Shown: positions 37,624 to 63,699 of the stretch, in pieces
How positions within the stretch are numbered: the first letter of the stretch is position 1
Layout of the letters: each line of letters opens with the position of its first letter
Program-made: the position numbers and the translations under genes
Source: an uncultured bacterium
GTDB taxonomy: Bacteria; Bdellovibrionota_G; JALEGL01; DATDPG01
Direction: 5' to 3'
Assembly: GCA_964397255.1 (NCBI GenBank)
Contig: CAYNHQ010000004.1
Coordinates: 118,363 to 182,362, forward strand
DNA: 64,000 bases
The notes under the pieces: model-generated
What the model was told of the DNA's origin: nothing
Seen by the model: only the letters and a program-made list of their open reading frames with translations
Databases searched by the model: none

Positions 37624-37655
37624 TGGTATCAAATAGGTATCACTTTGGACGACGC
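37624..37655 (+). repeat. Second copy of the island-end arm-type repeat
   Basis: See 32108-32137. Confidence 0.5.
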
Positions 37656-37842: not shown

Positions 37843-37928
37843 GAAATCTTGTAATGGTTTTAACAAATTATGTCCAACAGAGCGCCCGCTTGCGAAAAGT
37901 AACGCCATGCACCATAATGCGACCGAGC

Positions 37929-44779: not shown

Positions 44780-45000
44780 GTGTCTTCTCTCCTAACCCGT
44801 TACGGATTGTTGATGATTATTTAAAAAACATTTACTGACTGCCGCTCCGATAACAAGTGCGCGGAGCAATGTCAACACAAAAGAATGTCGCTGATCCACA
44901 TGCGATGCGAATTTCCGAGTCGTGCCTCGCAAAGGTCGACTATATAAACGTTGCGAAGCGCGTCTCTGCAATCCTGATGCCAAGCGGATTTTCGGAATAT

Positions 45001-47268
45001 TTATGTCTTCGGCGCGGGGACCAAATCGGAAAGGTGAAGCGTTCGATTCTCCAACATCTTCGCATAGAACGAAAAGTTCCTCGAAATCGCTTTCACATAA
45101 TTCCGTGTTTCTTCAAATGGAATGAACTCGATAAATGCTTCAGGAGGCAACTCTTTCCACCGAGCGATCCAGGCATCGACATGATTGGTTCCGGCATTGT
45201 AGGCCGCGAGAGCTAGGATGATGTTTCCTGAATAATGCTTCACGAGACTTCCAAGGTAGTGCGCGCCAAATTTAATGTTACGGGGGCCCACCGCAAGTAC
45301 ACTTCGATCGTACGATGGTTCATTTAGTTCTCTAGCCGCCAATTTCGCCGTATCTGGCATGAGCTGCATCAGTCCTACGGCTCCCGTGCGGCTCTCGGCA
45401 TCTTCACGAAACGCGCTTTCCTGCTTTATTAACGCGTAGATAAGAAGGGGATCGATTCCGTTGGCGGCGGCCTCCGCGCGAACGATGGGTTCCATTGGCC
45501 GGGGAAATAAAATTTCGAGGATGCGCCTCGAAACCGCGCCATTCGGATCGGGCGTAGCCAGTATGGCTCCAAGCGGAAAGGCCGACGAATAACTTCCGGA
45601 ATAGGCAAACAGCGTCGCGACATATTCCTGAGCCCCCGGATCAGGATCGAGATCGATTTCCTTCACCACCGCAGCGGCTGCAAAGGGAACTCCCGCGCTC
45701 AAAAAGGCCCTCGCACGATCAAACCGAAAGACATTCCACGGGTTACGGGGGGAATAATCCTTAATTGGGCCTGGGTCATAAAGAGAAGGAAGCCGGTCTG
45801 CCAAAAAAGAATAGAAAGAGAGGGGGGCCACTTTTGGAATCGAATCGAGATAACGTTTCGCCTCGGCCGAATTCCCCATTCGCTCATGAACCTTGGCTAG
45901 CCAGTAGAGATCCTGGGTGATGAGCGTGGTGTCTTGCACCTTGGCCCGGTCTGCTTCAAGCCACTCTTTTGCTTTCTTATCGTCATTGAGAACATAGGAG
46001 AGCCAGCCCACTTTGAAATGACATCGATCATAGAAATTGCTTCCCGAATGTTCATTCACCACTTTTTCAAAGTAAGCCCGGGCATCTTTCCAGGCCCCAC
46101 GATTTTCTGCGATGCGGCCAAGAAAATAATAAACATTCCCCGCTTGCGGATAAGTGGGGGAAGTTTCAATAATGTGTTCAAAAAGCTCTTGCGCCGGTTT
46201 GTCATGTTCATCCTCCCAAATGCTTCGCGCGAGAGAATAAAGGAAGTCAGGGGGGAGGCGCTTGGCATTCTTAACAAAATAAGCAGGGGGCCGGGGCTGA
46301 GCGAAATAAGATGTGGCCACTGTGCGAAGACGTGCGGCAGCTTTTCGAGCGGCAATGGAACCCGAATAATCCCGTTGAATTTTGACCAATAGCTCGATCG
46401 CCTCTTTGCTTTCTTTTCGATTCAATAGACGAACGGCGGTGGAAAATAGGGCGTCCTCTTCCGGCTCACGGGGTTTTAGCTCCGGAACCTCGGGTTTATA
46501 TGAAGGGCGACGGCTGGGGGGCGGCAGCGGGGGAAGGCCGCTCTCAAGAGAGGAAAGCTCTCGATTTCGAGGAAAGGAGTCTCTCGTTTTCTCCCAAAGT
46601 GCACGAGCTTCTTCCAGTTGGTTATCCCGTTTTAAGATTCCAATGAGTGTCGTCTGAAGAAACTCACGGTCGGCCGACTCGAGGTCATTTCCATCTTTCA
46701 GGAGCATGAATATGAGGTTTCTTGTTTCGGAGGGCCGCTTCAATGCCGTCAAACCCCGGATGTAACAGAGGGTGGCCTTTCGATATTCGCCGGTTTGCAG
46801 GTCACGAAAGACGGAAGAAGGAAAATCCAGCAGCTCATGAAGATGATCGCGAGCCTCGCGGCAAGGGATCGTCGCTCCCGCCGATTGATTTGCTTTTATG
46901 GCTCCCTCGCCCGTTAATCGGAGAGCCTGTGACCGATAGAAGAGCGCAGCGTCGGAGAGAAGGCTGGTGGCAGGTAGACCGGCAAGAATCGCCGCGGCGG
47001 TTCCAAAATGTTGGCGCTCTAATTCGATCAGGCCCTGCGCCAACAAAATCTCATCTTTTCGCGGCGGGGTGATGTTGGAAGCCTTCATTTCCGATTCAAG
47101 CCAGGCCGAAATCGGCGCGATCGTCGCCTCGGGTTGAGGTTTTGTGAGGTCGACCGTCAGAAATTTTGAAGTTCCCACTTCGGAAAAAAATGTGGGTATA
47201 GGAGGGGCTTGATCCGGTACCGACGATGCCGCTACGAGTAATGATAAAGAGACAATTCTTGAGATCAT
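45001..47268 (-). CDS. Soluble lytic murein transglycosylase (Slt family)
   Basis: Signal peptide. The long superhelical N-terminus precedes a C-terminal SLT catalytic motif '...ESAFREDAESRTGAVGLMQLMPDTA...AYNAG'. Confidence 0.8.
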   Translation of the reverse strand: MISRIVSLSLLVAASSVPDQAPPIPTFFSEVGTSKFLTVDLTKPQPEATIAPISAWLESEMKASNITPPRKDEILLAQGLIELERQHFGTAAAILAGLPATSLLSDAALFYRSQALRLTGEGAIKANQSAGATIPCREARDHLHELLDFPSSVFRDLQTGEYRKATLCYIRGLTALKRPSETRNLIFMLLKDGNDLESADREFLQTTLIGILKRDNQLEEARALWEKTRDSFPRNRELSSLESGLPPLPPPSRRPSYKPEVPELKPREPEEDALFSTAVRLLNRKESKEAIELLVKIQRDYSGSIAARKAAARLRTVATSYFAQPRPPAYFVKNAKRLPPDFLYSLARSIWEDEHDKPAQELFEHIIETSPTYPQAGNVYYFLGRIAENRGAWKDARAYFEKVVNEHSGSNFYDRCHFKVGWLSYVLNDDKKAKEWLEADRAKVQDTTLITQDLYWLAKVHERMGNSAEAKRYLDSIPKVAPLSFYSFLADRLPSLYDPGPIKDYSPRNPWNVFRFDRARAFLSAGVPFAAAAVVKEIDLDPDPGAQEYVATLFAYSGSYSSAFPLGAILATPDPNGAVSRRILEILFPRPMEPIVRAEAAANGIDPLLIYALIKQESAFREDAESRTGAVGLMQLMPDTAKLAARELNEPSYDRSVLAVGPRNIKFGAHYLGSLVKHYSGNIILALAAYNAGTNHVDAWIARWKELPPEAFIEFIPFEETRNYVKAISRNFSFYAKMLENRTLHLSDLVPAPKT

Positions 47269-47296: not shown

Positions 47297-48571
47297 ATGC
47301 TCAAAACAATCCTTCGAACTGTCCTAATCATATTGGTATTAGCCGGCGTCTTTTTCTTCGCTTTACGCATGTGGGAGGGAAAACGGGGCGCGCTTCCCAC
47401 GGCCACAGTGCCTGGGACACCTGAAGCGGCCATCACCGTTCGCCAGGTGAGTGTCGTGCCGACGGCGGAAGGCGCGCTAATCCAGATCGATGAAGTTTCC
47501 GGGCCCGGGTATACGATTACGCCGCTCGACACCGGTATTGGATTCGTTGTGGATATTCCCGGGGCAAAGGTGGGTATGCTCCAGAGTTCCATCCCGAATC
47601 CTCATCCGATGATCCGCAACATCGACGCTTCTCAAGTATTTGCCCAGGGCGCCGTGCATGCGAGGATTCGAGTCGAGCTCGCGCAGGAAGCAACGCATCG
47701 TGATCGGTTGCAGGCCTCCATCCTCTATATTGATGTTTTGTCCAAGGTCACGCCGACCGCAGCGCCTACGCCTGAATTAACTCCCATACCCAAACCAAAG
47801 CCAGTGGCGAAGAGTTCGAAGGCAAAAACGCATAAGCCCGTAGCCAAGAAGAAAGCGCCTTCGCGAAGAGCTTCACACACGGTAGCGACTTCGTCTCCCA
47901 AACGGTCAGCCCCGCCAAAACCTCGAGCTACACCCGCACCGATGGCGAAAGAAGGAGACTCCGATGCCTTGTTACGAGATTTAGGAATTGGCTCTGCCCC
48001 TCCGGCGGCTGCACCCGCACCTGAGCCGGTGGCTCCAGTGAAGGAACCTCCCCCTCCTGCTTTGGCTGCCGAGGCTGCGCCCCCTGCTGAGGCCACGCCC
48101 GCTGCGCCCGTGACGGATCTCGAATCCCTTTTTGTGGAGTCGCAGGGGGGAAAACCTGCCGAGGCCGCTCCGCCGCCTGCGGAGGAAGCCCCACCTAAAG
48201 TGGCCGCTATTCCACCCCCAGAAGCTGGAAAATTTGATTCGTCTCAAATCGCCCGGGATCTACCGGCGCTGACGGCACTCGCCGTGACCAGCGAAGGAGA
48301 GGCTACAGTTATCCGTTTCTCGCGTGAGCAATCCATACCTTTCAAAGTATTTAAAATGGTCAACCCGAATCGAATCACTGTCGATTTCAAAAATTCCGCG
48401 AATCATTTAAAGGCGAATTATCCCGCATTCCCTGGAACCAGGGTAAAGAAAGTGACGACGCAGAATTTTCCCGGCCAAGATGGGCTAACTCGCGTCACAT
48501 TTTTTATTGATGGTCTTCCGAAATATGAGTCGGCTACCGAAGGTAACGATCTCATACTGAAGTTGCCGTAG
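47297..48571 (+). CDS. AMIN-domain protein with Pro/Ala-rich linker
   Basis: N-terminal TM helix. One AMIN-like domain lies at ~aa 50-140 and another at the C-terminus ('ITVDFKNSANHLKANYPAFPGTRVKKVTTQNF...LTRVTFFIDGL'). Confidence 0.6.
   Translation: MLKTILRTVLIILVLAGVFFFALRMWEGKRGALPTATVPGTPEAAITVRQVSVVPTAEGALIQIDEVSGPGYTITPLDTGIGFVVDIPGAKVGMLQSSIPNPHPMIRNIDASQVFAQGAVHARIRVELAQEATHRDRLQASILYIDVLSKVTPTAAPTPELTPIPKPKPVAKSSKAKTHKPVAKKKAPSRRASHTVATSSPKRSAPPKPRATPAPMAKEGDSDALLRDLGIGSAPPAAAPAPEPVAPVKEPPPPALAAEAAPPAEATPAAPVTDLESLFVESQGGKPAEAAPPPAEEAPPKVAAIPPPEAGKFDSSQIARDLPALTALAVTSEGEATVIRFSREQSIPFKVFKMVNPNRITVDFKNSANHLKANYPAFPGTRVKKVTTQNFPGQDGLTRVTFFIDGLPKYESATEGNDLILKLP
48390..48571 (+). repeat. 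182-bp direct repeat, copy 1 (3' end of the AMIN-domain gene including its stop)
   Basis: 100% identical to 50015-50196. Confidence 0.9.
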
Positions 48572-50481: not shown

Positions 50482-53400
50482 TTGCATCATTTAGTGTGCT
50501 ATTCTCAGGGTTCATTGAACTTCAAACAGATCCATTTTGCCCAACATTATAAGTTGATCGCCCCACTAGGTCAGGGTGGGATGGGGAAAGTATTTGAAGC
50601 AGAAGACCTTCGTTTCCCCGGCCGACGGATTGCGCTGAAGCAATTGAATGAAAGTGATCCCATCTGGGTCGCCACATTTCGCCAAGAATTTTCCCTATTG
50701 GCCGCTTCGCAACATCCCAACATTCTCGATGTATACGAATTTGGCAGGGACGAGGAAACGGGGATCTCTTTTTATACGGCGGAATTGATTCGAGGAGAGT
50801 CTCTCGCCCATCGTCGATTGTCTTGGAGCGAGAGGGAGCTGATCGAAGTTTTACTTCACATCGGTCGTGCCCTTCGATTCCTCGGCAGTCGAAGCATTAT
50901 CCATGGGGACATCAAACCGGGAAATATTTTATGGGATGCGAGGAATGAGGAATATCGATTGGTTGATTTCGGTCTTGCGCGCACGCGGACGGGCCGAGAT
51001 GTGCATGGCCAATCGGGAACCCCTCTCTATATGGCGCCCGAAATTTGGGAAGGCAATAGGGCCGACAGTCGTTCAGACCTCTTTTCCCTCGGTGTCACGA
51101 TCGAGCGACTCGCTTCTCATACGGACCCGCCGACCGCTCTTCGCTCGTCCCTTCGAACCGTCATCACTCGCATGACCGAGAAAAATCCAGATGCGCGATT
51201 TCGCGATGCGGATGCGCTGCTGGAAAATCTTTGTCGTACGGTCGACCCATCATTGGCAAAGGAAACTGAGGCCACTCTTAATGCCTATTCGGTTTCCCCT
51301 CGGCTGAGTGGTCGGCAAGAAGTGCTGACAGAAATTGCACAAGAGTTACGGGAGGGGAGGTCGCCGGTGGTGGTAACGGGGGCTCCCGGAATGGGCAAAT
51401 CGAGGCTCCTCGTCGAAATATGTCGGCGATTCCAATTGGAGGGAATTTCCACCACACTCATTCACTGTCAGCTTCATCAGGCGTTTGCGGATCAGATTGG
51501 GCATGCGATATCCGAACAAGAGCATTTATTGGTACTGGACGATGTTGAGTTTCTTCCCGAGAAAGATCAGGAACTTCTTCTCGAGGTGGTAAGGCGAATC
51601 GGACGAGAGAAAAAAGAAAAATTCTCCATCCTCTTCAGCACTGAACAAATTGAGCACGCGCAAGAATTTCCCGGGTTGAAACATCATCTCCTCAAGCCGT
51701 TCTCCTCTGAAGAAGTACACGACTACATGGAATCGCTTGGGGTGGAAGTCCATCCGGAAGTTCTCCGTGTATTGGTCCGGCTTTCGGGAGGGGTTCCCCT
51801 CTTGCTCGAGTCGATGGTTCGCGATGGGCTGCCGAATGTGGAAATGTTTTCAAAAGTCGAAGCCGCAGAAGAATTGAATAAACTGCACCCCCCGAAAGAT
51901 TATGAACGAATTTGGTCCGAACGAATTTTCACACTTTCATCCGATGAACGGCGTCTCTTGGAGTTTCTCGCGATCGCTGACGCCCCATTGCCGATAAATT
52001 ATGGGGTCGACGACAGTCGCCAAAGCGCCCGCCTGATGTCTCTTCACCTCGCTCGCGGAGCGATTTTGGGTAATCGTTCCGCCTGCGTGATCGAGAGCCC
52101 TGCGGTAGCTGAATTGGCATTGAAGAATTTGTCTTCCGCCGACCTCCGGAATCGGCATCGGGAGGTAGCGGATCTCTTCGAAGGCGTCCTCTCCTCCGAA
52201 GCCGGACGCCCTTTGGAATTAATTACCCAGGTGGCGGTACATAGGTCTCTTTCAGGAGACCTGACCCAAGCCTCGCCTTTTCTTGCGGAAGCTCTAGGAC
52301 AATTTCTCAAATCGCATGCGAATGATGAAGGAATACTGATGTTGCGACGTATTCCGATCGAGGGGCATTGGAGCGGATCCGCTCGCTCCACGGCCGCAGA
52401 ACTTTGGGCTCGTGTAGGGGAATACGACCGCGCATTTGAACAATTGATCCAGCTCCAAAAAGAAAAGGGAGAATCGAAAGCCATCATTCTTCGTCGAATG
52501 GCTGATTTGCAACTCAAAAGGAGAAAGTTCAAAGAGGCTTTGGAACAAGTCACTGAAGCGGAAAATGAGATCTCTGCCCTCGAGGAGAACCAGAGAAAAG
52601 AAGAACGGGTTCACCTTCTCTTGGTTCGACAAACCATCGCGCTTTTACAAGGGGGCTACCCCCTGGTGGAAGCTACCGGCCGCGAAATCGAAAAGAAAGC
52701 TCCGGAAGGTATGGTGCGCGAGCGCGCTTCATCGCTCTGCATGCGTGGCCATGCAGCGCAGATGGAAGGGCGTCTACAAGAAGCAGGAAAAAAATTTCGC
52801 GCGGCACTTCAATTAGGAGAAGAAAGTAAAAACCTCTCGGCACAGTCAATGGCCTGGGGAAATCTCGGAAAGTTGGCACAGCATGAAAGCCGATTCGCGG
52901 ATGCGGAAAAGGATTTTAGAAAGGCCATGGAATTTGCGGAAAAAGCGCGAGATTATCTGGCCCTTGCCACGCTTCAGATGAACGTTTCGGCGCTTTGCCA
53001 AAAAATAGGAAAGTATCGTGAAGCCTGTGACTCGATTGAACGGAGCGTCGAAATTTATCGGCGACTTGGAAATCATGAAGAGTTTGCGCTGGCGCTTTAT
53101 ACGCGAGCCTCGCTTCGATTTTCTCTCTTTGGTTCCGATACAGCAGTGACCGACGATGTCCAAAACGCTTTGGAGTTGGCCGAAGCGGCTGGCAATGAGG
53201 ATGCTGCCGCATATGCGCATCTTTTATTGGCAAGAGTTTCAAAAAACTCCGCGAGCCGATCCCATTGGGATACCGCTCGCCGATCTTTTCGAAAACGAAT
53301 GGACTCCTCGGGTCTTCGCGAGGCTGCGTTGGTTGCACTGGAAGAGCACTTCGCTCCAGAAACGAAAGAACTCGAGATCGATGAAATGGATCTTGAGCAA

Positions 53401-55416
53401 CGCCTACGTTTTGCGGCGTGGAAGTTCGTCGAAGGAAAAGGGAGTCAAGAGGGAGAACTATTGAGCCCCGTGTTGCGGAAAATGGCCGATAAAAATCCCA
53501 ATCCGGAGCTGCTGGCTCAGTTTCTTTCTCTTCAGGTTCAATTCAAGAAGGGGCAACCAAGGGACCCAATGGCGGCTTCACAAGCCATTTTGATATTTGA
53601 AGGCTTGAGTGCTTCGCTGGGAGAAGAAGATCAAGAGGCCTATCTCTCGGTACGCCGAGTCGATGACTTGAAAAAATTAGTGACCGAAGATGATGAATTG
53701 CCAGGATCCCCTTCCGTGATTCACGCCGAGGTTGATGAGAAAGCGACGATTCAGGACTATAGAAAAAACTCGCTTTCAGAGGAAGACCTTATTACGACCC
53801 GCGCGGGGCGTGAGCTCCCTGCGAATTCACTCGGCAGACTTCTTGGAATGATCAAATTGCTAAATGATGAAATTGAATTTCAAAAAACGGTTGATCTTCT
53901 TCTCGATTTTGCCGTCGCGGAAACAAAGGCGGAGCGTGGGTTTTTTGTAACCGAAGAGGGCGACGATTTCCGCGTCGTTTCGGCCCGGAACATGAAGCAG
54001 CTGTGGATTCGTGAGCCCAACTCTCGGTTTAGCCGAACGGCCGTAAAAAAGGCGCTCCGGTCAGGCGCGACGATTACCGAAGGAGATGTAGCCGAGTCAA
54101 AATCTTGGAAAAATTCGCCCAGCCTTGTGAACCAAGAGGTTCGATCATTCCTGGCCGTTCCGTTGCGATCTCAAGAAAAAATTATGGGAGTTATTTATTT
54201 GGATCGCCGCAAGTCCCCGAAGGCGTTTAGCAGCACGGAAGTCCTCATTGTGGAAGCGCTGGCGGAACAAGGGAGCACGGCCCTTCGAAAGAATGAGTTG
54301 ATGAGCGAACTCAAAATTCAAGCGGAACGAATTGCGCAGTTCAATGGAAAATTGGAGGACGAACTTGAATCCAAAGAAACGCAAATTCAGCAGACGGAGA
54401 CCCTGTTACAAAAAACCGGTTCGGAAGATTCCATATTTCACCGCCACGCACAAATCATCGCGAAGAGTGATCGCATGCGAAACATTCTTCGTACGGTAGA
54501 GACCATTGCCGCCTCAAGATCCTATTGTTACATCTCTGGAGAGTCTGGAACTGGCAAGGAGTTGATTGCGCAAGCGTTGCACGAACGATCTCCTCAGGCT
54601 CGGGGCCCTTGGGTTCCGGTGCAATGCGGGAGCATTCCCGAAGATCTTTTTGACGCGCTCTTCTTTGGGCATGAAAAAGGGGCTTTCACTGGTGCGGATA
54701 AGGCGCGGGTCGGTTTTTTCGTGGCCGCGAATGGGGGAACTCTTTTTCTGGATGAGATAGACCAACTCAAGCCGGATCAACAAGCGAAACTGCTCCGGGC
54801 TCTTCAGGAATCGAAGGTCTTGCCGGTCGGCAAAACTGCAGAAGTTTCTTTCTCGATACGTGTCGTAACGGCATCCAACCGGGATCTCGAGAAGCTGAGA
54901 GCGGCGGGGGATTTTCGAGAGGATCTTTTTTATCGCCTCCATGTGATTCGGATCGACCTTCCTCCCTTACGCGAAAGAATCGAAGATATTCCGCTTCTCA
55001 TCCATCATTTTCTAAAGATGTCAGCGCTGACCCAAAAATACCCTCTGACAGTGGCGGATAATGCGCTTGAGGCTCTGATGAGATACCGCTGGCCGGGAAA
55101 TATACGCGAACTGAAAAATGAGATGGACCGAATTGTGGCACTCCTTCCGCTCTCTTCCGGAGGCAAACGTAGAATTAAGCTGGAGGACCTTTCGCCTGTG
55201 ATCCGTGGGGGATCCATGGGAGAGGCGATAAGCGATGATGAACCGTTTCATGAAGCAATTGATCGGTTTACGGCACAGCGAATTTTGCTTGTTCTCAAGA
55301 AGACCAAAGGGAACCGAACCAAGGCCGCGCAGCTCGTCGGAATGCACCGAAACGGGTTCAATCGAATGCTTCAGCGACTCAAAATTAAAGTCCTACCTCG
55401 TTCAGCTTATGATTAA
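50482..55416 (+). CDS. Multidomain regulator: Ser/Thr protein kinase + STAND/AAA ATPase + TPR repeats + GAF + sigma-54 interaction (AAA+) domain + Fis-type HTH
   Basis: Kinase: 'LGQGGMGKVFEA', 'HGDIKPGNILW', 'GTPLYMAPE'. P-loop 'VVTGAPGMGKSRLL'. TPR-like helical repeats span ~aa 600-1000. GAF domain lies at ~aa 1180-1290. EBP core 'ISGESGTGKELIA...EKGAFTGA...GGTLFLDEI'. C-terminal HTH 'KGNRTKAAQLVGMHRNGFNRMLQRL'. TTG or GTG start. Confidence 0.8.
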   Translation: MHHLVCYSQGSLNFKQIHFAQHYKLIAPLGQGGMGKVFEAEDLRFPGRRIALKQLNESDPIWVATFRQEFSLLAASQHPNILDVYEFGRDEETGISFYTAELIRGESLAHRRLSWSERELIEVLLHIGRALRFLGSRSIIHGDIKPGNILWDARNEEYRLVDFGLARTRTGRDVHGQSGTPLYMAPEIWEGNRADSRSDLFSLGVTIERLASHTDPPTALRSSLRTVITRMTEKNPDARFRDADALLENLCRTVDPSLAKETEATLNAYSVSPRLSGRQEVLTEIAQELREGRSPVVVTGAPGMGKSRLLVEICRRFQLEGISTTLIHCQLHQAFADQIGHAISEQEHLLVLDDVEFLPEKDQELLLEVVRRIGREKKEKFSILFSTEQIEHAQEFPGLKHHLLKPFSSEEVHDYMESLGVEVHPEVLRVLVRLSGGVPLLLESMVRDGLPNVEMFSKVEAAEELNKLHPPKDYERIWSERIFTLSSDERRLLEFLAIADAPLPINYGVDDSRQSARLMSLHLARGAILGNRSACVIESPAVAELALKNLSSADLRNRHREVADLFEGVLSSEAGRPLELITQVAVHRSLSGDLTQASPFLAEALGQFLKSHANDEGILMLRRIPIEGHWSGSARSTAAELWARVGEYDRAFEQLIQLQKEKGESKAIILRRMADLQLKRRKFKEALEQVTEAENEISALEENQRKEERVHLLLVRQTIALLQGGYPLVEATGREIEKKAPEGMVRERASSLCMRGHAAQMEGRLQEAGKKFRAALQLGEESKNLSAQSMAWGNLGKLAQHESRFADAEKDFRKAMEFAEKARDYLALATLQMNVSALCQKIGKYREACDSIERSVEIYRRLGNHEEFALALYTRASLRFSLFGSDTAVTDDVQNALELAEAAGNEDAAAYAHLLLARVSKNSASRSHWDTARRSFRKRMDSSGLREAALVALEEHFAPETKELEIDEMDLEQRLRFAAWKFVEGKGSQEGELLSPVLRKMADKNPNPELLAQFLSLQVQFKKGQPRDPMAASQAILIFEGLSASLGEEDQEAYLSVRRVDDLKKLVTEDDELPGSPSVIHAEVDEKATIQDYRKNSLSEEDLITTRAGRELPANSLGRLLGMIKLLNDEIEFQKTVDLLLDFAVAETKAERGFFVTEEGDDFRVVSARNMKQLWIREPNSRFSRTAVKKALRSGATITEGDVAESKSWKNSPSLVNQEVRSFLAVPLRSQEKIMGVIYLDRRKSPKAFSSTEVLIVEALAEQGSTALRKNELMSELKIQAERIAQFNGKLEDELESKETQIQQTETLLQKTGSEDSIFHRHAQIIAKSDRMRNILRTVETIAASRSYCYISGESGTGKELIAQALHERSPQARGPWVPVQCGSIPEDLFDALFFGHEKGAFTGADKARVGFFVAANGGTLFLDEIDQLKPDQQAKLLRALQESKVLPVGKTAEVSFSIRVVTASNRDLEKLRAAGDFREDLFYRLHVIRIDLPPLRERIEDIPLLIHHFLKMSALTQKYPLTVADNALEALMRYRWPGNIRELKNEMDRIVALLPLSSGGKRRIKLEDLSPVIRGGSMGEAISDDEPFHEAIDRFTAQRILLVLKKTKGNRTKAAQLVGMHRNGFNRMLQRLKIKVLPRSAYD

Positions 55417-55570
55417 AGCGCGGTTAGGATTCTTTTCTTAAAGGTGAGAGAGGGAACTATAGTCTACTTTAGTATGAAAAATTTGTTTACGATATTTTCA
55501 ATTTCTCGAAATATACATTTATAACATATTGTTATTATTATGTTTATTTAATATAAATAAGAGTAATTTT

Positions 55571-55586
55571 TGGTACAGTTATGGCA
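55571..55586 (+). promoter_or_regulatory. Sigma-54 (-24/-12) promoter TGGTAC-AGTTA-TGGCA
   Basis: GG (55572-73) and GC (55584-85) are separated by exactly 10 nt, matching TGGCAC-N5-TTGCA at most positions. The site lies ~35 nt upstream of ATG 55621 in an AT-rich intergenic region, directly downstream of the sigma-54 activator gene. Confidence 0.55.
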
Positions 55587-55620
55587 AGAAAACGAAATGA
55601 TGTGGCATGGGGTATCTAGA

Positions 55621-58332
55621 ATGAGAGTTGTCATAACTCTCATTTTTGCGTTTAGCCTCTTAGGGGATATTTTCGGGTGCAAGTTCCCGGGAAGTTCTTC
55701 CAACGTTTCCGAAGCCACTTCACAGGATCGACTCGGAAAATCAAACGACCCGAACGCGCTTCCCGATTCAGGGCCCGCACTTCCACCACCGATTGCCTAC
55801 CTCGTCCCTCTGGATGGAAACTTGGTCGTCGCAAAAGCTATCGGCGCCAATAAAGTTTTGGTGACCGGTCTTCGTGGATCAGCCGACCCCAGGGCGGTCC
55901 AAGTTTGTAGTGTCAACCAGACCCTGGGACAAATCTCTCCGGACTGTTCGACGATTACGAACGGATCGTTCAATTACCTCACCACCGGTTCCGTAGGCGA
56001 CAAGATTTCAATTTGGGAGAAAGCCCCCCAATATCCCGACAGCAGCCCCATCATCGAAGAAGTTTTATTAATTCAGCCACAATTTTCTCCCAAACAAATA
56101 TTGGGATTCGCACGAAGTGAGAATGGATTGTTCATTCAGTATGCAGGAGGCAAACTCATTTTCTTCCCAAAAGGTGAATGGCTTAAATCGTTGGATCAAA
56201 TTCAAACGATAGATCTTTCCAAAGAACTACCCTCGAACAATGTGATGTTTATGGCGGAAGATGATCAGGGGGGTGTATGGGTTTCAGACCAACAACAAAT
56301 CGCTCACTTTGTGAAAAAAGGAAGCTCGGTCGCGTTGTCCAAAATCTATACCCTATTCGATCATCCTGAGATTATTGCTCTCAAGGTACATCCCGTCGGT
56401 AATATTTTGTGGTTGGTTACCTCTAGCGAACTAATCCGAGCCGATTTTCCCAACGGGCCCGACAACGACCCGGTTCTTACACATTTCTCTCAAGGACCCA
56501 TGACTCTCCAATTTATTTCCGCACTTCTTCCAAACCCGTTAGAAGCGCAGGGATTTTGGGTGGCATGTTCCACCAACGGCCTCTTTTATTTTAAGGGAGC
56601 GATCAATGGATCGGAGATTGAGGAATATCCTGGAAGAGGCACCAAAATTACGAGTCTTGCCCGAAGTAACGACGGTGGAAGTATTTATTTTGGCGCGAAA
56701 GAAAACATGTCACGACAAACCATAAATTCTACGAGTTCAGGAGGGAACACTGGGTCCGGTTCTATAAGCGCTGGAGGGGGCGGCGACGCCACTTACTATG
56801 GAGGGCTTCATCAAGTTACGCTACCCAACGGCCACCCGGTCGCCGACCGATCACAGGGCGAAGATTATACGGTGACTCATCTTCTCCTCAATATCTCAGG
56901 ACAAAACACCGTAGATGTGACGAGCCTTTATAATCCTGGAACGGGCGGGATGTTCGTGGGTACGACGCACGGACTCGTTGTGATCGATAATCTCAATGAT
57001 CCGGATGGATCTTCGTATCATCCCGACCCCACATTTGTGGGAACCCAAAATCCGATTTATGCCATTTCGTATGAGCCGAGTGAACGTTCGATATGGCTCG
57101 GTGAAGAATACGAAGGCGTAGAGTTTGATGAACAGGGAAATCCGATCGCGAGGTTTCGGAAATACGACATCGCGAACGACGTCTGGACCTATTTTGCAAG
57201 TTGGAGAATGGTCGACTGGCATGCGAATGCGATTGCAGGAAATGGAAATGAAATCGTGGTTGGAACGGAATCAGGGGGCGCGAATCAATTTCTGCCTCCC
57301 AGTCCGAGCATGCCGAATGGAACGATGACATCACTTTATCCGCTCGGTTCCGAAATCAGCAGCAAAGTATCTGCTCTCGGGTACGACCACTTAAGAAGAC
57401 TTTGGATTGGACTCAAGGGGAGCTTAAGCGAGCACAACGGCCACGCCATTCGCGAGCTGGATGGAACATTGCGACTCCTCCCGCCGCCGGTCGTTTCTAC
57501 CTCTTGGGATTCTTATTTACTAGATGCAAATCCAAATGCTTTTGTCGCTGCCGGGACCGATTCCATGTGGGAATTGGCCGGAGGAATGGGGGGCAATTCC
57601 ATTCGTTATGTGCACAACGATGGGTCGTTTGAACTTCTCGCTCCCGGGCATCCTGAACCAGAGAATGACTTTTATGTTTCGCAATATGCCGTGATGACCA
57701 CCGACGGAGCGGGCGGTGTTTTTCTGGCGAATGGGAGTGGATTTTACCCGATCGGATCGGGGGAATCTCCTGAAGGGGTTCCAATCACTGAGCTATTTCA
57801 CATTACATTTCATACGGGAACACGAAAATTTGAAATCCATTCTCTTGGAATGATCGAAGCTGGGGTCGAGAATGTTTATGGCGCACTTGGACGCATGATG
57901 TTTGATGGAGCATCCTTGTGGATTGGCACGATGAAAATGCAAATTTATCGAATTGATATGGTTGATGGGCTTTCTGTGTCCAGTCTAGATCACGTGGCCC
58001 CCGGGGGATTGGTCCGTTTTGTGTTCCCTACCGGAGACCTGAATCAGCTTCCCATCAAAGTCGAGACATTGACCGACCAGGAATCGGTCGCTCTAACTTC
58101 CGATGGTCGCGGTGGTGTGTTCATCAATGAATCGGCGGACAATGTCGCCTACCATGGCACCGGAATTCTTCACGTTCAGAAAAATTCAGACGGCACCTTT
58201 TCCACTCAGCACCTTTCCACCCCGATGCGCGTGGATGAAAATTATTCCCTGATGACCTGGGTTCCTTCGCTCTCAAGTCTCGCGATCGGCTATTTGGACA
58301 ATGGTTTCGCTCTTCTTCCCTATCGATTTTAG
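55621..58332 (+). CDS. Large secreted lipoprotein with beta-propeller-like repeats (~900 aa)
   Basis: Signal/lipobox 'MRVVITLIFAFSLLGDIFGC'. Gly/Asn/Thr-rich repeated blocks suggest a propeller or beta-rich fold. No specific family assigned. Confidence 0.6.
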   Translation: MRVVITLIFAFSLLGDIFGCKFPGSSSNVSEATSQDRLGKSNDPNALPDSGPALPPPIAYLVPLDGNLVVAKAIGANKVLVTGLRGSADPRAVQVCSVNQTLGQISPDCSTITNGSFNYLTTGSVGDKISIWEKAPQYPDSSPIIEEVLLIQPQFSPKQILGFARSENGLFIQYAGGKLIFFPKGEWLKSLDQIQTIDLSKELPSNNVMFMAEDDQGGVWVSDQQQIAHFVKKGSSVALSKIYTLFDHPEIIALKVHPVGNILWLVTSSELIRADFPNGPDNDPVLTHFSQGPMTLQFISALLPNPLEAQGFWVACSTNGLFYFKGAINGSEIEEYPGRGTKITSLARSNDGGSIYFGAKENMSRQTINSTSSGGNTGSGSISAGGGGDATYYGGLHQVTLPNGHPVADRSQGEDYTVTHLLLNISGQNTVDVTSLYNPGTGGMFVGTTHGLVVIDNLNDPDGSSYHPDPTFVGTQNPIYAISYEPSERSIWLGEEYEGVEFDEQGNPIARFRKYDIANDVWTYFASWRMVDWHANAIAGNGNEIVVGTESGGANQFLPPSPSMPNGTMTSLYPLGSEISSKVSALGYDHLRRLWIGLKGSLSEHNGHAIRELDGTLRLLPPPVVSTSWDSYLLDANPNAFVAAGTDSMWELAGGMGGNSIRYVHNDGSFELLAPGHPEPENDFYVSQYAVMTTDGAGGVFLANGSGFYPIGSGESPEGVPITELFHITFHTGTRKFEIHSLGMIEAGVENVYGALGRMMFDGASLWIGTMKMQIYRIDMVDGLSVSSLDHVAPGGLVRFVFPTGDLNQLPIKVETLTDQESVALTSDGRGGVFINESADNVAYHGTGILHVQKNSDGTFSTQHLSTPMRVDENYSLMTWVPSLSSLAIGYLDNGFALLPYRF

Positions 58333-58384: not shown

Positions 58385-60466
58385 TTAGGGTAAGGTCACA
58401 ACCGTAATTGCGCTACCACTATATTGTTTCTGCCAGACCAAATTTAGTTTTGTTTGATTCGTCTGGGGGAATAAGGGGGGCGGGGATATGCTCAGTGCAG
58501 GGTCGTGACGGAAAACAATCCGGTTAAATCCGCCTTGGGTTCGATCGTTATCTGGGTGTGTATACGCGTTGAGCTGGCTGAATCCTTTTGTCCCTAAAGA
58601 GCCATAGAGCCAAATTTTTGCCTGACCCGCGCGAGCTACATCCACAAGAGAGTTGCTAAAATCGCAGCTTGATCCCCACCAGGTGGTATCAGCATCATGA
58701 GCTCTGCAATAAAGGGGCCTCGCTTTTGCCGAAACCGGTTTCCCCTGGCCATCCACATTATAATAGTAGGGAATATGACCTGGATTGCTGGTGTTTACGG
58801 GTGAGTGGGCCCAAAGCGCGCCTGTGACATCGGGAACGACGATTCCATCGTCTGAGAGATCGTAATCATTAATATTTTCGACGTAGAGAATTCCGGTCGG
58901 CAGCCCATGCTGAGTTTTATCGTCGCCAAGGGCAATGAAGGCACCCGAAAGATCGAGAATTCCGGGGATGTTGTGAGCGTAGGGAACGTCGTTTTCACGA
59001 TATTCATTGTCTTCTGCATCCCGATCAACTTCTGTGTTCGGCACGCTAAAATTACTCTTTCCATCGAAATAGACTTGATTGCTGGACGGCGTGTCTGTCG
59101 GTGAATCCCAGTGACGAAAGACGCTGACATAATGAGGAACGTCGATATTTCGAAGTGCAACCATGCCGAATGAATCGCCGCTATTTTTCCCTTGATGAGC
59201 GTAGTCAATATCTCCTTCAATTTTGCAATTTCCGGGCGACGGATTGGGAAGGTTTCCCGTTCGCTGAATCGGATCGTGAGAAGAATCGGCGTCACAGGCC
59301 ACCGTCACACGACCATTTACGATACCCCGCACACCGATCTCGACATTGTTCCCATAAATGACCATGTTGGGTGTAATCGGATAAGTTGCGATCGGGGTAG
59401 AGCCGTATCTGTCCCTTGGAGGCAAACCATCGGGAGCTGGTGAAACAGAGGCCGGCAGAGGATCGTAGTAGAAATCGGCGGCGCTGGAGTTGCAATCATA
59501 ACGTTTCACATATCCATCGGCTGTAAATTCCAGGCAGACCTCACCGGTCGGCGCGCTGCTGGGATCGAGGTTGAATTCCAGCCTTGTAGGTTCTACGGCG
59601 AGTTTGTCTAAGAGATCGCGTGAGATGTAATTCGAAACGTGGAAATTTCCCTTCCAGCCGTATTGAAAATCGACATATGTGGCGGGGTCGTAGTCAAACG
59701 GCAGAGATCCGTCCGGAACATTTAATTCAAACGTGACGGGGCCTTTAAAGATATGCTTCGAGACTCCAAAAAGTGGGGTATCGAGGAAATAGGGCTGAAT
59801 GGGTCCGAAGTGAACATGCCCATCGTATGTGGCCGTGCGAAGGGGAAAAAGCTTGTTCGGATCGGCGTGGGGAAGGGGCTGAGGATTAAAGAGGGCATAG
59901 TCGAGCTCGGCGAAACCGATTCTTTGGAGTGAAATTTCAGCTTCATACGTATATTTACTACCGCTTTGGGGATTCTCGGCCGTGGAAACAATTCGATAGA
60001 ATCTGGGTGAATCCATACTGTTGTTTTCAGGATCGGTTGGATCGGCAATGAGGGGCTTATTTTCCGAACTGGGATAATACCAAACCGAAAGCTTTAACGA
60101 ATCTCGAGTGAACTGAATCCGCGGCAGAGAAGATTCACCGATGGTGCTTCGAACGAGGCCGACATACTCCGGATTATGGATTGGGTAGAAGGCGGGTCCC
60201 TCCGCTGGAACCCGCCAATCTGGCGGAGTGTTGAAATCGGGAAGAACCGGTGCCGCGCGTGCGAAGAGGTCAGCCTTGGCCATTTCAAATCCGCTTTGTG
60301 CCAATTCTTCCAATGTGCTCTTGGATCGAAAGAGTTGGCTGATATGAATTCCGTTATGAGTCGCAGCGATCCATCCGGCGCCTGCCACCGTAGCGACGAG
60401 AAGGAGAATGAGTACAGCAATTAGCGCCGAACCTTTGTCTGTGCGAATTTCGTTTCTTTCGGTCAT
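58385..60466 (-). CDS. PilX-N-domain protein (type IV pilus minor pilin / tip-associated, 693 aa)
   Basis: The N-terminus 'RTDKGSALIAVLILLLVATVAGAGWIA' matches the PilX_N pattern. It lies immediately downstream of a prepilin-type gene. Confidence 0.45.
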   Translation of the reverse strand: MTERNEIRTDKGSALIAVLILLLVATVAGAGWIAATHNGIHISQLFRSKSTLEELAQSGFEMAKADLFARAAPVLPDFNTPPDWRVPAEGPAFYPIHNPEYVGLVRSTIGESSLPRIQFTRDSLKLSVWYYPSSENKPLIADPTDPENNSMDSPRFYRIVSTAENPQSGSKYTYEAEISLQRIGFAELDYALFNPQPLPHADPNKLFPLRTATYDGHVHFGPIQPYFLDTPLFGVSKHIFKGPVTFELNVPDGSLPFDYDPATYVDFQYGWKGNFHVSNYISRDLLDKLAVEPTRLEFNLDPSSAPTGEVCLEFTADGYVKRYDCNSSAADFYYDPLPASVSPAPDGLPPRDRYGSTPIATYPITPNMVIYGNNVEIGVRGIVNGRVTVACDADSSHDPIQRTGNLPNPSPGNCKIEGDIDYAHQGKNSGDSFGMVALRNIDVPHYVSVFRHWDSPTDTPSSNQVYFDGKSNFSVPNTEVDRDAEDNEYRENDVPYAHNIPGILDLSGAFIALGDDKTQHGLPTGILYVENINDYDLSDDGIVVPDVTGALWAHSPVNTSNPGHIPYYYNVDGQGKPVSAKARPLYCRAHDADTTWWGSSCDFSNSLVDVARAGQAKIWLYGSLGTKGFSQLNAYTHPDNDRTQGGFNRIVFRHDPALSISPPPLFPQTNQTKLNLVWQKQYSGSAITVVTLP

Positions 60467-61668
60467 TAATGGGGCCCCGTATAATGTTGCGGATTTTGAG
60501 GAAACATTCCTTCATCTGATTGCAATGTCATAGCGATAAGGTTCTCCGGACGGCTGCTCCGATCGAAGTGAAAGGGGTTCACAGTCGAATGGCCTTCACT
60601 GTGGAGCGACGCGCCTGAATGAGAATCAGGGAGCATCGTCAGCGCGACGCGCACGCGCTTGATAGCCGGATAACCGAGTTGATTAAAACCGCAGGATGAC
60701 TTGTCGCTGATCTCTCCCGCTCGCGGAGTCCGCGTAGAGCCTACCATTTTAGTCGTTAAATCACTGATCACTTCATAGATCAGTTGAAAACTTTGTACAC
60801 CGGGAAGTGCGACACTCCAGTGAGGAGACCGCCCCGGAGAGCCGAAGGATCCCGAAGTGGGATTAAAGCCGTCATCCACGAGGTGGTCATCAAATACAAG
60901 AGATTGGTCACCGGGCCGATAGGCGTAGTCAAAGAATTCAACTTTCCGAACGTAGGATTTCAAGCCATCCTGGCCATAGTCGTGCTGAAAAGGGAGATTC
61001 CAGATCGAGGAAGAACTGTGCTCGATCTGTGTCGGCTGGCCGGGGTTGTTCGACAACGTGATTCGAGTGATTCGAATGAAATCACTTTGCGTGCGATCAC
61101 TAATCATAAGATAGTCTCCCACGCGCAAATCCTCTCCACCGACCACATCGATGGTTGGGTGAGGATGAGAAGGTTTATCACTCGTGGAGTGCGGCTTATG
61201 GGAGGTTGAATCGATGTAGAGAGGAATTTGAATGGAATCTTTTGCCATCACTACAAATCGAATTGCATCGCTATCGGCGGCATTATTTGGGAGGACGGAC
61301 GGATCTCGTAGATCGTCAATCGTTGTCGGCACCGTTAAAGTAGTTAAGCCCGGGTAGGCGACCAGACTGTTAGGAAGAGCGGTGCCCCGCGGTGTGAATT
61401 CGTTGCATCCAGAAGGAGCCGGAGCCGATGGGGAAAGATTTCCCAGCACCGTGGAATCGGCCACTGGGATCGCAGCAATGTTGGTTAGACGTGAGGCAAG
61501 TCGATCCAGCGCATCGTTTGAAACGTTTTTGGTGCGTGCTTGGACCAAACTATTTGTTCCCGATCTCACTTGTGTGGAAGTGATTCGAAATGCTCCCGCA
61601 GAGAGCATAGCGGCGAGAACCAGGGAGACGCTTAGCTCCGTAAGTGTGAACCCATTCGGTGAAAACAT
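60466..61668 (-). CDS. Type IV pilus minor pilin, PilW-like (prepilin N-terminal methylation motif)
   Basis: 'MFSPNGFTLTELSVSLVLAAMLSAG' carries the G/FTLxE prepilin peptidase site with Glu at +5. The start is ATG 61668; the ORF-track start at 61728 is an upstream extension. Confidence 0.6.
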   Translation of the reverse strand: MFSPNGFTLTELSVSLVLAAMLSAGAFRITSTQVRSGTNSLVQARTKNVSNDALDRLASRLTNIAAIPVADSTVLGNLSPSAPAPSGCNEFTPRGTALPNSLVAYPGLTTLTVPTTIDDLRDPSVLPNNAADSDAIRFVVMAKDSIQIPLYIDSTSHKPHSTSDKPSHPHPTIDVVGGEDLRVGDYLMISDRTQSDFIRITRITLSNNPGQPTQIEHSSSSIWNLPFQHDYGQDGLKSYVRKVEFFDYAYRPGDQSLVFDDHLVDDGFNPTSGSFGSPGRSPHWSVALPGVQSFQLIYEVISDLTTKMVGSTRTPRAGEISDKSSCGFNQLGYPAIKRVRVALTMLPDSHSGASLHSEGHSTVNPFHFDRSSRPENLIAMTLQSDEGMFPQNPQHYTGPH

Positions 61669-61701
61669 TTTATTTTCCACTCGCTCCACAGGCTCCAATG
61701 T

Positions 61702-61717
61702 CTCAATCCCTGTGCCA
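61702..61717 (-). promoter_or_regulatory. Sigma-54-like promoter candidate TGGCAC-AGGGA-TTGAG upstream of the pilW-like gene
   Basis: Perfect -24 TGGCAC with 5-nt spacing to TTGAG. The conserved -12 GC is replaced by GA. It lies ~33 nt upstream of ATG 61668. Confidence 0.3.
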
Positions 61718-61900
61718 AACAAATACAAAATAATTTCAATATGATACGTTGTTTTCCTCCATCATTTAGGTGTATTTGTTACGGAGCACTACACAGAAAA
61801 GTGTGCAATTTGGGCTACAAAAAAATAGGCGGCGGCACTATATTGCAATCAGCTATCCCGCCAGCGGCTTTTCCATTCTTCCGTACCGGTTTTAAAAGAC

Positions 61901-62734: not shown

Positions 62735-62766
62735 AGGGGTGCTTAACGGCGCCCCTTTTTTTCAGG
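62735..62766. terminator. Bidirectional rho-independent terminator
   Basis: AAAAAAA-GGGGTGC-TTAAC-GGCGCCCC-TTTTTTT between convergent genes. It overlaps the last codons of the cyclase gene. Confidence 0.6.
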
Positions 62767-63699
62767 CTTTAACGAAATTTCGACGACGCGAGATTCCTTC
62801 GGAGCCAACTTCACTATCTGTGTGGAATCTTCGAATCCTTCTTTCTGAACACGGATCTTAAGATTTCGATTGGGTGGGACCTGATTAATTTTCACCGGTG
62901 TTTGCTTGGCCACTTCTTTATTTTCTATGAACACTTCCACCGACTCCGGTTTCGACCGAATCGTAAGCGTGGCGTAAGTTCCTCCCTCGGAAGAAGAGCC
63001 TTTTCGAAAAAGAAGGAATGACGTGCTTCCCAAAATCACCGCCAAGGCAATGCCGATCGCAAGCGTGCCATGTCCTACACCGATCCCTTTCGCGATGGGT
63101 TCCACCGTGGGTGGGACTACCGAGAGTTTGGGAGCGGGCGCGGGTTGGTCTACTTTTTCCTGTGAGATGCCGCGGGCCACGGGTGACGGGGAGGGGACGG
63201 GAGGAGACTCTTTTTTTGGAGGTGGGGGTGGCGGGGCTTCCTCTTTTTCAGTCAATGCAAAGAGACGAACAGGCTGTGCCATTCCCTTAAATGTCCGAGG
63301 CCCGAGGTCCGTCAAATGAACGCCACGACCATCGGAAGCGAGACGATAAGATTCCGCGGTCAAAATTTCCCCGTTTCCGGCCACACCTTCCAGGCGGGCC
63401 GCCATGTTCACGGCCTCACCAAAAACATCGTTTTGGGCAACGGTCACTTCGCCAAACGCAATACCCGCTCTCCACTCGGTTTCTGCGGGAAGTGAACCGC
63501 GGAAGGAGAGTGCGGCGTCACAGGCTTCCCTGGGATCCGTAAATCCAAAGACGTATGCCTCTCCGAACGTTTTTAAGACAATTCCATGGAATTTTTCCAC
63601 ACACTCCAAGAGCTTCTTCCGGAGTTCGAGCGGAGGAATGGAAAACAGGATCGTAAGCTGCTCTTCCCGCACGGAGTAAGAATAGCAGATTCTATTCAT
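62743..63699 (-). CDS. Class III adenylate/guanylate cyclase with Pro-rich linker, TM helix and C-terminal PEGA domain
   Basis: The cyclase core 'VFGEAVNMAARLEGVAGNGEILTAESYRLA' precedes the TM 'LAIGIALAVILGSTSFLLF'. The PEGA-like C-terminus reads 'ATLTIRSKPESVEVFIENKEVAKQTPVKI'. Confidence 0.7.
   Translation of the reverse strand: MNRICYSYSVREEQLTILFSIPPLELRKKLLECVEKFHGIVLKTFGEAYVFGFTDPREACDAALSFRGSLPAETEWRAGIAFGEVTVAQNDVFGEAVNMAARLEGVAGNGEILTAESYRLASDGRGVHLTDLGPRTFKGMAQPVRLFALTEKEEAPPPPPPKKESPPVPSPSPVARGISQEKVDQPAPAPKLSVVPPTVEPIAKGIGVGHGTLAIGIALAVILGSTSFLLFRKGSSSEGGTYATLTIRSKPESVEVFIENKEVAKQTPVKINQVPPNRNLKIRVQKEGFEDSTQIVKLAPKESRVVEISLKPEKKGRR

Follow-up and report, generated by a model that had tools for sequence, protein, structure and literature searches.

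The 64-kb stretch of Bdellovibrionota_G DNA analysed here (the window) contains, in this order on the + strand, a gene for a giant sigma-54 activator of the bEBP type (50482–55416) and a gene for a secreted, probably lipid-anchored protein of 903 aa with very divergent Reg_prop-type beta-propeller blades (55621–58332). They are separated by an AT-rich intergenic region of 204 nt and 28% GC (55417–55620), within which a predicted sigma-54-type -24/-12 motif, TTGGTACAGTTATGGCA, lies at 55570–55586 and reads towards the propeller gene.

The activator gene, identified by Pfam scan, motif check and homologues, encodes 1640–1644 aa, its annotated start probably being GTG 50494. From N to C terminus the Pfam scan finds a regulatory module of Pkinase, AAA_16/STAND (nSTAND), TPR (TPR_12) and GAF (GAF_2) domains, the AAA+ domain expected of a bEBP (Sigma54_activat, PF00158; 6.7e-62, aa 1325–1491), AAA_lid_14, and a C-terminal DNA-binding HTH (HTH_8, PF02954; aa 1599–1632). 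The GAFTGA loop is intact at aa 1400, the Walker motifs GESGTGKE and TLFLDEI are present, and the kinase is of the Ser/Thr, non-RD type, with G-loop, Lys, HGD, DFG and APE all found; by its motifs the activator looks functional. The first-pass annotation had described it as the only sigma-54 activator in the window, with the motif directly downstream, and this holds: tblastn found no second copy of the activator AAA+ domain in the 64 kb, and the gene stops at 55416. No rpoN gene turned up in the 64 kb. With a rough preliminary matrix, no other candidate site of at least 7 bits was found in either flank of the activator gene.

The propeller gene is monocistronic, since the next genes are convergent. 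Its product begins with a signal peptide ending in Cys, MRVVITLIFAFSLLGDIFGC, and is a probable lipoprotein. The fit of I-F-G-C to the lipobox [LVI][ASTVI][GAS]C is loose, and the PROSITE PS51257 rule excludes Asp near the lipobox (-4); the call is not a strict one because the Asp at -4 violates that rule. Reg_prop blades are expected to build one or two seven-bladed propellers; here the repeats are weak: one stretch passes the Pfam Reg_prop model at 29.2 bits, and the weak repeat-level phmmer/HMMER matches are all to Reg_prop proteins. The earlier description of a propeller lipoprotein of about 900 aa agrees with the length of 903 aa, the signal peptide ending in Cys and the weak repeats, but the lipobox is not a strict one. 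A partial AlphaFold model is all-beta (residues 160–360 at pLDDT 70–88, mean pLDDT 49); a single-sequence model with pLDDT 32 was discarded. The best Foldseek matches in the PDB are tandem propellers, including BT4673, BT4663 and PorZ, with TM about 0.2, and a Y_Y_Y domain gave no match even at E=10. No orthologue was found in 15 billion proteins, an exhaustive HMMER search gave repeat-level matches only, and no relatives were found in a genome-contig collection or in a 5.8-billion-protein index. Judged by these searches, the propeller gene is an orphan, lineage-specific gene.

The 55571 site (TGGTAC-AGTTA-TGGCA; TGGTACAGTTATGGCA, 55571–55586, + strand) has the spacing of a sigma-54 promoter. 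GG 55572–73 (-25/-24) and GC 55584–85 (-13/-12) are separated by 10 nt, as had been stated, and the earlier estimate of some 35 nt from the GC to ATG 55621 agrees with the 36 nt counted from C55585 on the same strand. The predicted sigma-54 transcription start is at about 55597. The motif is co-directional with the propeller gene and well inside the roughly 300 nt before a start codon that a sigma-54 promoter may occupy, and it is intergenic and faces that start only if the start codon is not TTG 55570. The -12 element is TGGCA, not TTGCA, i.e., 55583, at -14, is G where the TGC core of the element has T.

Sites were scored with an empirical matrix built from 135 ChIP-seq-bound E. coli sigma-54 sites. 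Among these 135 sites the base at -14 is T in 127, C in 7, A in 1 and G in none. The 55571 site scores 9.8 bits, which ranks it 16th in the window. The bound sites span 6.5 to 20.3 bits with a median of 14.4, and only five of the 135 score as low; the G at -14, absent from the bound sites, thus puts the 55571 site among the lowest 4% of real sites. Over the 16 positions other than -14 it scores 16.9 bits, above 133 of the 135 real sites, and a match of that strength over those positions has a chance expectation of 4e-5 per region. G at -14 is also absent from all ten other candidate sites considered here (eight strong ones in relatives' loci and two in the window), which all have T, and from the Salmonella sites examined. 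A rougher first matrix, after Barrios et al. 1999, had put the site at 12.4 bits and rank 7, with 0.2% of shuffles scoring as high; it was superseded by the 135-site matrix because it underweighted -14. With three mismatches to TGGCACG-N4-TTGCW, one of them the G at -14, and 9.8 bits, the promoter should not be called "near-consensus", as the first-pass annotation did; the term overstated the match.

How often would such a site arise by chance? In dinucleotide shuffles of the intergenic region, 9.8 bits was reached on the + strand in 270 of 20000 (1.35%), and a crude likelihood ratio of real site to chance comes to about 2–14. The scores thus moderately favour something more than chance at 55571. 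Counted without weights, sites at this level of mismatch to TGGCACG-N4-TTGCW number 70 in the window on both strands, against 76.7 expected, so that no enrichment of sigma-54-like sites is seen by this measure. In the intergenic DNA of the window there are six sites of at least 9.7 bits, against 1.64 expected (P=0.006), an enrichment which suggests that the genome uses sigma-54. Two window sites are stronger than the 55571 site: 44967 on the - strand, with 14.1 bits, and 42791 on the + strand, with 13.6 bits, which lies before an M23 peptidase gene and is preceded, at about 80 nt, by a perfect 9-bp palindrome. A match at 2814 looked intergenic but is inside an ABC ATPase ORF (2030–2869).

The intergenic region offers few other signals. 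No intrinsic terminator was found on the + strand in 55417–55620, after the activator gene, so read-through into the propeller gene could suffice for its expression. A sigma-70-like match, TATACA-18-TATTAT at 55512–55541, is no more than chance would give (one found against 1.0 expected). Another candidate, TTGTTA-N17-TATAAA (55529–55557), was not called by the scan and was rejected because its -10 element does not end in the invariant T. Enhancer sites (UAS) of sigma-54 promoters are usually inverted repeats 80–200 nt upstream. The first-pass annotation had pointed to the AT-rich upstream DNA as the place to look for them, and a search there found no convincing inverted repeat upstream of the motif, only AT-rich low-complexity or imperfect repeats such as ACTATAG-N4-CTTTAGT (55456–55473). 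Considered as an enhancer half-site common to the 42791 and 55571 promoters, the hexamers TGAGAG/GTGAGA were dropped, as the window shows no enrichment of them. The spacer's matches to the IHF consensus, all with one mismatch and in AT-rich DNA, were uninformative.

The start codon of the propeller gene is, from sequence reading, ambiguous. In the public annotation the ORF begins at TTG 55570 and has 920 aa, in which case the motif would fall inside coding sequence. A Shine-Dalgarno-like AAGAG lies 7 nt upstream of this TTG; initiation there would place 19 residues, two of them acidic, ahead of the signal peptide, an atypical N-terminal extension. Two in-frame ATG codons at 55597–55602 (+ strand) coincide exactly with the predicted sigma-54 start. 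As alternative starts they would give MMWHGVSRMRVV..., and they are possibly leaderless starts; the promoter of one relative of the activator gene (locus L003) has ATGATG at the same distance. ATG 55621 is preceded, at 7 nt, by what may be a Shine-Dalgarno sequence, GGGGT (55609–55613, + strand). This ATG is enclosed by a 13-bp hairpin with a 3-nt loop (55618–55646, + strand) with, at its core, the perfect 10-bp inverted repeat AATGAGAGTT-GTCAT-AACTCTCATT, the only perfect inverted repeat of at least 10 bp (loop 3–8) in the 64-kb window. The hairpin might act as an RNA stem that blocks translation, or as a palindrome to which a protein binds. Folding of RNA 55565–55650 gave z = -2.6 against shuffles, with 3 of 200 shuffles as good, and 55577–55587 is 91% complementary to 55628–55638.

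Homologues of the activator fall into more than 70 clusters; those with the same architecture, 1500–1850 aa long, occur in Sorangium, other Myxococcota, Gemmatimonadota and uncultured lineages, and are annotated as "sigma 54-interacting transcriptional regulator", "PknK" or "Nif-specific regulatory protein". The closest (P0003) is 32% identical, and its locus reaches the contig end, so that the downstream side is absent. In five of eight distant relatives the intergenic region beside the activator gene holds a strong sigma-54 site (12.4–20.4 bits with the empirical matrix) that faces the neighbour gene; three of the five are downstream and co-directional, as at 55571, and two are divergent. 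Among the relatives' loci, no site adjoins the activator gene in L008, and in L006 and L007 the adjacent sites are degenerate only. The neighbour genes faced by the five sites all encode signal-peptide or lipoprotein products. These targets (a distant, faint Peptidase_M11 match, CarboxypepD_reg and fn3 repeat proteins, and small lipoproteins) are homologous neither to each other nor to window proteins. Unlike the 55571 site, the promoters of L003, which has two TGCAAC-N5-GTTGCA palindromes upstream of its sigma-54 site, of L006 and of the 42791 M23 gene have enhancer-like repeats upstream. No experimental study of this activator architecture was found in the literature searched.

The best single explanation, to which we give a probability of roughly 0.55, is a dedicated regulator-target pair, plausible and ordinary in kind but unproven. 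The 17-mer at 55570–55586 would be the sigma-54 promoter of a single downstream gene, 55621–58332. Despite the G at -14, sigma-54 RNA polymerase would wait there as a closed complex, and the adjacent giant activator, switched on when its N-terminal kinase/STAND/TPR/GAF sensor part receives a signal, would remodel the complex by ATP hydrolysis via the GAFTGA loop. The transcript would begin near 55597, and a translational lock may, speculatively, be added by the hairpin that encloses ATG 55621. The best support is comparative, as the model fits the layout of the activator family elsewhere. The first-pass annotation had proposed that the kinase/STAND/GAF sensor protein activates the large lipoprotein gene; the recurrence of this layout in five of eight relatives and the functional look of the activator speak for that proposal, but the promoter is weaker than claimed, with its G at -14 and no enhancer-like repeat. 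For now it is a routine prediction that pairs a regulator with the gene next to it, and is to be treated as a hypothesis.

One competing explanation carries real, if lesser, weight: that the motif is a chance near-match unused by sigma-54, and that transcription of the propeller gene either begins at a sigma-70-type promoter in the AT-rich spacer or reads through from the activator gene, with translation perhaps from TTG 55570. The G that no bound site has at -14, the rank of only 16th in the window, the 1.6 or so sites of such score expected in the window's intergenic DNA and the flat mismatch count are all consistent with it, as are the lack of a + strand terminator and of a recognisable UAS, the sigma-70-like match at 55512–55541, and an annotated TTG start with AAGAG in front of it. 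Yet that sigma-70-like match is itself no better than chance, the TTG start brings the atypical acidic-residue-bearing extension before the signal peptide, the 16-position match would hardly arise in a 28% GC spacer, and the site is exactly where relatives of the activator carry their promoters.

If the 55571 site is instead a real sigma-54 site, it might be served by an activator encoded elsewhere, or be non-productive or regulatory, the adjacent kinase-EBP acting on other targets such as the 42791 M23 site. Any activator with a nearby binding site can serve sigma-54 promoters, many sigma-54 binding sites in vivo are not productive promoters (Bonocora et al. 2015, PMC4591121), the window has the two stronger sites, and the adjacent site is lacking in L008 and degenerate in L006 and L007. 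This arrangement is nevertheless improbable, given that the promoter immediately adjoins the activator gene in five of the eight relatives, that the 64-kb window holds no second activator, and that the M23 site is 7.7 kb away. Still less probable, to the point of being a long shot, is that the functional element is an RNA/DNA palindrome and not a promoter, TATGGCA and the 55618–55646 stem belonging to a longer transcript's structured 5' leader, which would control translation of the propeller gene. The folding score of RNA 55565–55650, the 13-bp stem around ATG 55621 with its core unique in the window, and the complementarity of 55577–55587 to 55628–55638 all point that way, but the strong stem forms without the motif, and where the motif does take part in pairing, that pairing is weak and in competition with the 13-bp stem. 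Moreover, no part of the strong stem reaches upstream of the predicted sigma-54 start, and stem and promoter can therefore coexist.

The regulator-target reading can be carried further, though this extension is doubtful. Giant kinase-STAND-TPR-GAF sigma-54 activators may form widespread "one regulator, one exoprotein" cassettes, each with its own adjacent sigma-54 promoter and a single, rapidly replaced secreted or lipoprotein target, and the copy described here may be under a double lock, made of the -14G variant and of the hairpin that hides the start codon, while translation may also begin leaderless where transcription is predicted to start. Should the regulator-target pair at this locus be real, a large uncharacterised class of signalling proteins, in which sigma-54 activation is coupled to a eukaryote-like kinase and a STAND switch, would have a defined output (one promoter, one gene) and become experimentally tractable, and sigma-54 would be able to use a GGC -12 element.

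As to known systems, the locus resembles the NifA-nifH, FhlA-hyc/hyp, PspF-pspA and ZraR-zraP pairs in having a GAFTGA AAA+ activator with a C-terminal Fis-type HTH beside the (here predicted) -24/-12 promoter of a neighbour gene; NifA and FhlA also share with the 50482–55416 activator a GAF sensory domain. The putative target here, a cell-envelope protein, is in keeping with Francke et al. 2011 (PMC3162934), who tie sigma-54 to the bacterial exterior. The locus differs from these textbook pairs in the TGGCA -12 element, with G at -14, in having no recognised upstream activator sites, and in the Ser/Thr kinase and STAND NTPase with TPR placed before GAF in its activator. The other Pkinase-AAA_16(STAND)-TPR-GAF-Sigma54_activat-HTH_8 proteins are like it in domain order, length and, in five of eight loci, an adjacent sigma-54 site, whereas identity is at most 32% and the target genes are unrelated to each other. 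The propeller protein shares with the Bacteroides BT4663/BT4673 sensors and with PorZ of the type IX secretion system a Reg_prop repeat match and an all-beta model that matches their tandem propellers, although at mean pLDDT 49 and TM about 0.2. It differs from them in being free-standing with a signal peptide, with no Y_Y_Y domain, transmembrane segment or kinase output, and in an identity of about 20%. Finally, the E. coli glmY promoter, TTGGCACAGTTACTGCA (site OS24, PMC4591121), is identical to the 55570–55586 motif at 14 of 17 bases, including the spacer AGTTA, and differs in its C at -23 and in its -12 element, which is the canonical CTGCA and has T at -14. The likeness is confined to the motif and is not one of homology.

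The best single explanation for the motif between the activator and propeller genes is a sigma-54 promoter for the propeller gene, controlled by the neighbouring kinase/STAND/GAF activator (probability about 0.55). The activator ORF (50482-55416, +; 1640 aa in the public annotation) encodes a protein in which Pfam identified Pkinase (aa 23-218), AAA_16/nSTAND (about aa 275-375), TPR_12, GAF_2 (aa 1133-1268), Sigma54_activat (aa 1325-1491, E=6.7e-62), AAA_lid_14 and HTH_8 (aa 1599-1632) segments. The GAFTGA loop is unbroken at aa 1400, Walker A (GESGTGKE) and Walker B (TLFLDEI) were both found, and the kinase domain retains the G-loop, the beta-3 Lys, HGD (non-RD), DFG and APE. The first-pass annotation took this gene to be the only sigma-54 activator of the window, and tblastn with its AAA+ domain indeed found no second copy in the 64 kb. 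Envelope genes are abundant upstream, including an AMIN-domain protein, a TPR-SLT lytic transglycosylase and an M23 peptidase (45001-47268, 47297-48571); the segment 961-5700 carries BamA, Skp and LolCDE-like genes.

The motif, TGGTAC-AGTTA-TGGCA (55571-55586, +), lies toward the 3' end of the 204-nt intergenic region 55417-55620, which is 28% GC versus about 49% for the window. As noted earlier, its GG (55572-73) and GC (55584-85) are exactly 10 nt apart. It is one of 70 sites in the window with no more than three mismatches to TGGCACG-N4-TTGCW, where 76.7 are expected; with GG and GC required at that mismatch limit, intergenic DNA holds 3 sites versus 1.9 expected. A first weighted matrix (12.4 bits, a score reached by 0.2% of shuffles) was too generous and gave way to an empirical matrix, derived from the 135 E. 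coli sigma-54 sites bound in ChIP-seq that Bonocora et al. 2015 list in their Tables 1 and 2 (PMC4591121). In that set 127 sites carry T at -14, 7 carry C, one carries A and none carries G, a conservation about equal to that of the -12 C (125/135). Here -14 is G (55583), a departure at one nearly invariant base that makes the description "near-consensus" wrong. Because of this G the site scores only 9.8 bits, ranking 16th in the window, and only 5 of the 135 bound E. coli sites score as low. The other 16 positions give 16.9 bits, above 133 of the 135, and a match of that strength is expected 4e-5 times in the spacer.

The main rival is that the match arose by chance and that the propeller gene is expressed by read-through or from a sigma-70 promoter, which we consider rather unlikely. 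The full 9.8-bit score was attained by 270 of 20,000 dinucleotide shuffles of the spacer, and a crude likelihood ratio for a real site over a chance match comes to 2-14, varying with the assumed rarity of G at -14 in real sites; the site is unlike the usual product of random AT-rich DNA. No + strand terminator was found after the activator gene, so that read-through could suffice, and the one sigma-70-like match in the spacer is at chance level. An inverted-repeat search of the AT-rich upstream region, where the first-pass annotation had suggested looking for UAS sites, gave no convincing enhancer repeat near the site. Confidence in the regulator-target reading is lowered by the -14 G, the missing enhancer, a search for rpoN confined to the window and an ambiguous start codon, and is raised by the otherwise excellent motif and by the layout of the activator's family. 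The dedicated regulator-target pair proposed at first has the support of the activator's relatives and of an intact activator; its putative promoter carries one flaw, the -14 G. Placement of a regulator next to its target is standard and is noted in the sigma-54 literature (PMC3162934).

The activator's domain architecture occurs widely, in Sorangium, other Myxococcota, Gemmatimonadota and many MAGs; the closest relative is only 32% identical. The loci of eight distant relatives with the same domain architecture (L001-L008; 131 kb) were scanned for sigma-54 sites and rescored with the empirical E. coli matrix. Five of the 11 sites of at least 11.5 bits adjoin the activator gene: TTGGCATGTGCATTGCT in L001 (15.0 bits) and ATGGTACGTCATCTGCA in L004 (12.4 bits), both divergent from it; GTGGCACAAACCGTGCA in L002 (13.8 bits), 107 nt past its stop and ending 24 nt ahead of the next start codon; TTGGCACAAAAATTGCA in L003 (20.4 bits), about 175 nt past its stop; and AAGGCACGCTTATTGCA in L005 (15.2 bits), downstream. 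L006 and L007 have degenerate sites with a TTGT-type -12 element downstream of the activator gene, and in L008 no sigma-54 site adjoins it. At -14 all five strong activator-adjacent sites carry T. The genes that these five sites point at show no homology to one another or to the window's genes; every one starts with a signal peptide, and three have a clear lipobox Cys. Judged from these loci, the family's target would usually lie next door and usually be a single gene, encoding an exported protein. This layout is the strongest argument for the regulator-target model, and in either flank of the window's activator gene 55570-55586 is the sole candidate site. A by-product that can be reused is the tendency of this large, unstudied activator family to have its own sigma-54 promoter, and one gene for an exported protein, next to it. 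Clear candidate enhancers were seen in L003, as two TGCAAC-N5-GTTGCA-type palindromes (11007-11093) 80-170 nt upstream of the promoter, and in L006, where GTCAAAA/TTGAC motifs recur on either side of the activator gene (5770-5850, 11205-11260). A PEGA gene lies near the activator in L002, and the window also has a PEGA-domain gene (62743-63699, -).

The genes of the 64-kb window do not include rpoN. By the empirical matrix, its intergenic DNA holds 6 sites of at least 9.7 bits versus 1.64 expected (P=0.006) and 2 of at least 13 bits versus 0.29 (P=0.03); this enrichment and the intact activator give indirect support for sigma-54 use by the genome. The organism is placed among uncultured Bdellovibrionota-like MAGs, to which its ThrRS is 72-76% identical. 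Of the two best intergenic sites, CTGGCATCTCTGTTGCT (42791-42807, +; 13.6 bits) lies upstream of an M23 peptidase gene (42862-43842), 55 nt ahead of its ATG at 42862. A perfect 9-bp palindrome, TTTCTCACA-AGAA-TGTGAGAAA (42690-42711), about 80 nt upstream of its -24 element, is in a textbook enhancer position, and as a sigma-54 candidate this site surpasses the one before the propeller gene. The other, TTGGCATCAGGATTGCA (44967-44983, -; 14.1 bits), has the top score among truly intergenic matches; it is directly 3' of the SLT transglycosylase stop, and about 190 nt separate it from an HU-like gene downstream (44501-44779, -), for which a TTGACA-type sigma-70 box and a clear terminator are also present.

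Three ATGs of the propeller ORF (55570-58332, +), at 55597, 55600 and 55621, are in frame. Sigma-54 transcription is predicted to start at about 55597, the A of the in-frame ATGATG; L003 has an identical ATGATG at an equal distance from its promoter, which is taken as a coincidence. In the public record (P0001) the 920-aa protein begins at TTG 55570, a codon whose first base immediately precedes the motif, so that the motif would fall within the ORF. This start is probably mis-set, to judge from the canonical signal peptide that begins at ATG 55621 and the atypical acidic extension that precedes it from TTG 55570. ATG 55621, with a Shine-Dalgarno-like GGGGT 7 nt before it, is the likely start codon and lies within a 13-bp hairpin (55618-55646), whose core, AATGAGAGTT-GTCAT-AACTCTCATT, is the sole perfect inverted repeat of at least 10 bp (loop 3-8) in the window. 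Its 5-nt spacer fits the geometry of NtrC-type activator sites, so this palindrome may equally well have a DNA-binding or an RNA role.

Translated from ATG 55621, the protein starts MRVVITLIFAFSLLGDIFGC-KFPGSSSN, a signal peptide with a terminal Cys; it is a probable lipoprotein, as first annotated, though not a strict one because of Asp at -4. A word-index search returned only the protein itself and no orthologue, and HMMER, run exhaustively against 1.84 billion representatives, yielded 16 weak matches at repeat level; the eight of these that were scanned are all Reg_prop propeller proteins. Pfam found one Reg_prop stretch (29 bits) and no Y_Y_Y domain. The AlphaFold model (15-sequence alignment) is all-beta, with mean pLDDT 49 and residues 160-360 at 70-88, and Foldseek against the PDB matched it at low TM to tandem beta-propellers including BT4673, BT4663 and PorZ. 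The label "propeller" is thus reasonable. With the next two genes (58385-60466 and 60466-61728) on the opposite strand, the propeller gene is monocistronic. Of this convergent pair (58385-61728, -), one encodes a 693-aa protein that matches no Pfam family; the 420-aa product of the other carries a prepilin-type N-terminal methylation motif (N_methyl, E=7e-4). The PEGA-domain gene (62743-63699, -) comes after them.

Two identical sigma-54-like matches elsewhere in the window are spurious, produced by the perfect 46-nt direct repeat (31994-32039 and 37797-37842) of a 5.8-kb integrated element. The element (31957-37874) adjoins tRNA-Pro(GGG) (31957-32033, -), the 5' part of which is spanned by the repeat, and carries genes for a tyrosine integrase (32124-33392, -), a serine resolvase (34377-35084, -) and a ClpP-like SDH protease (36703-37611, +).
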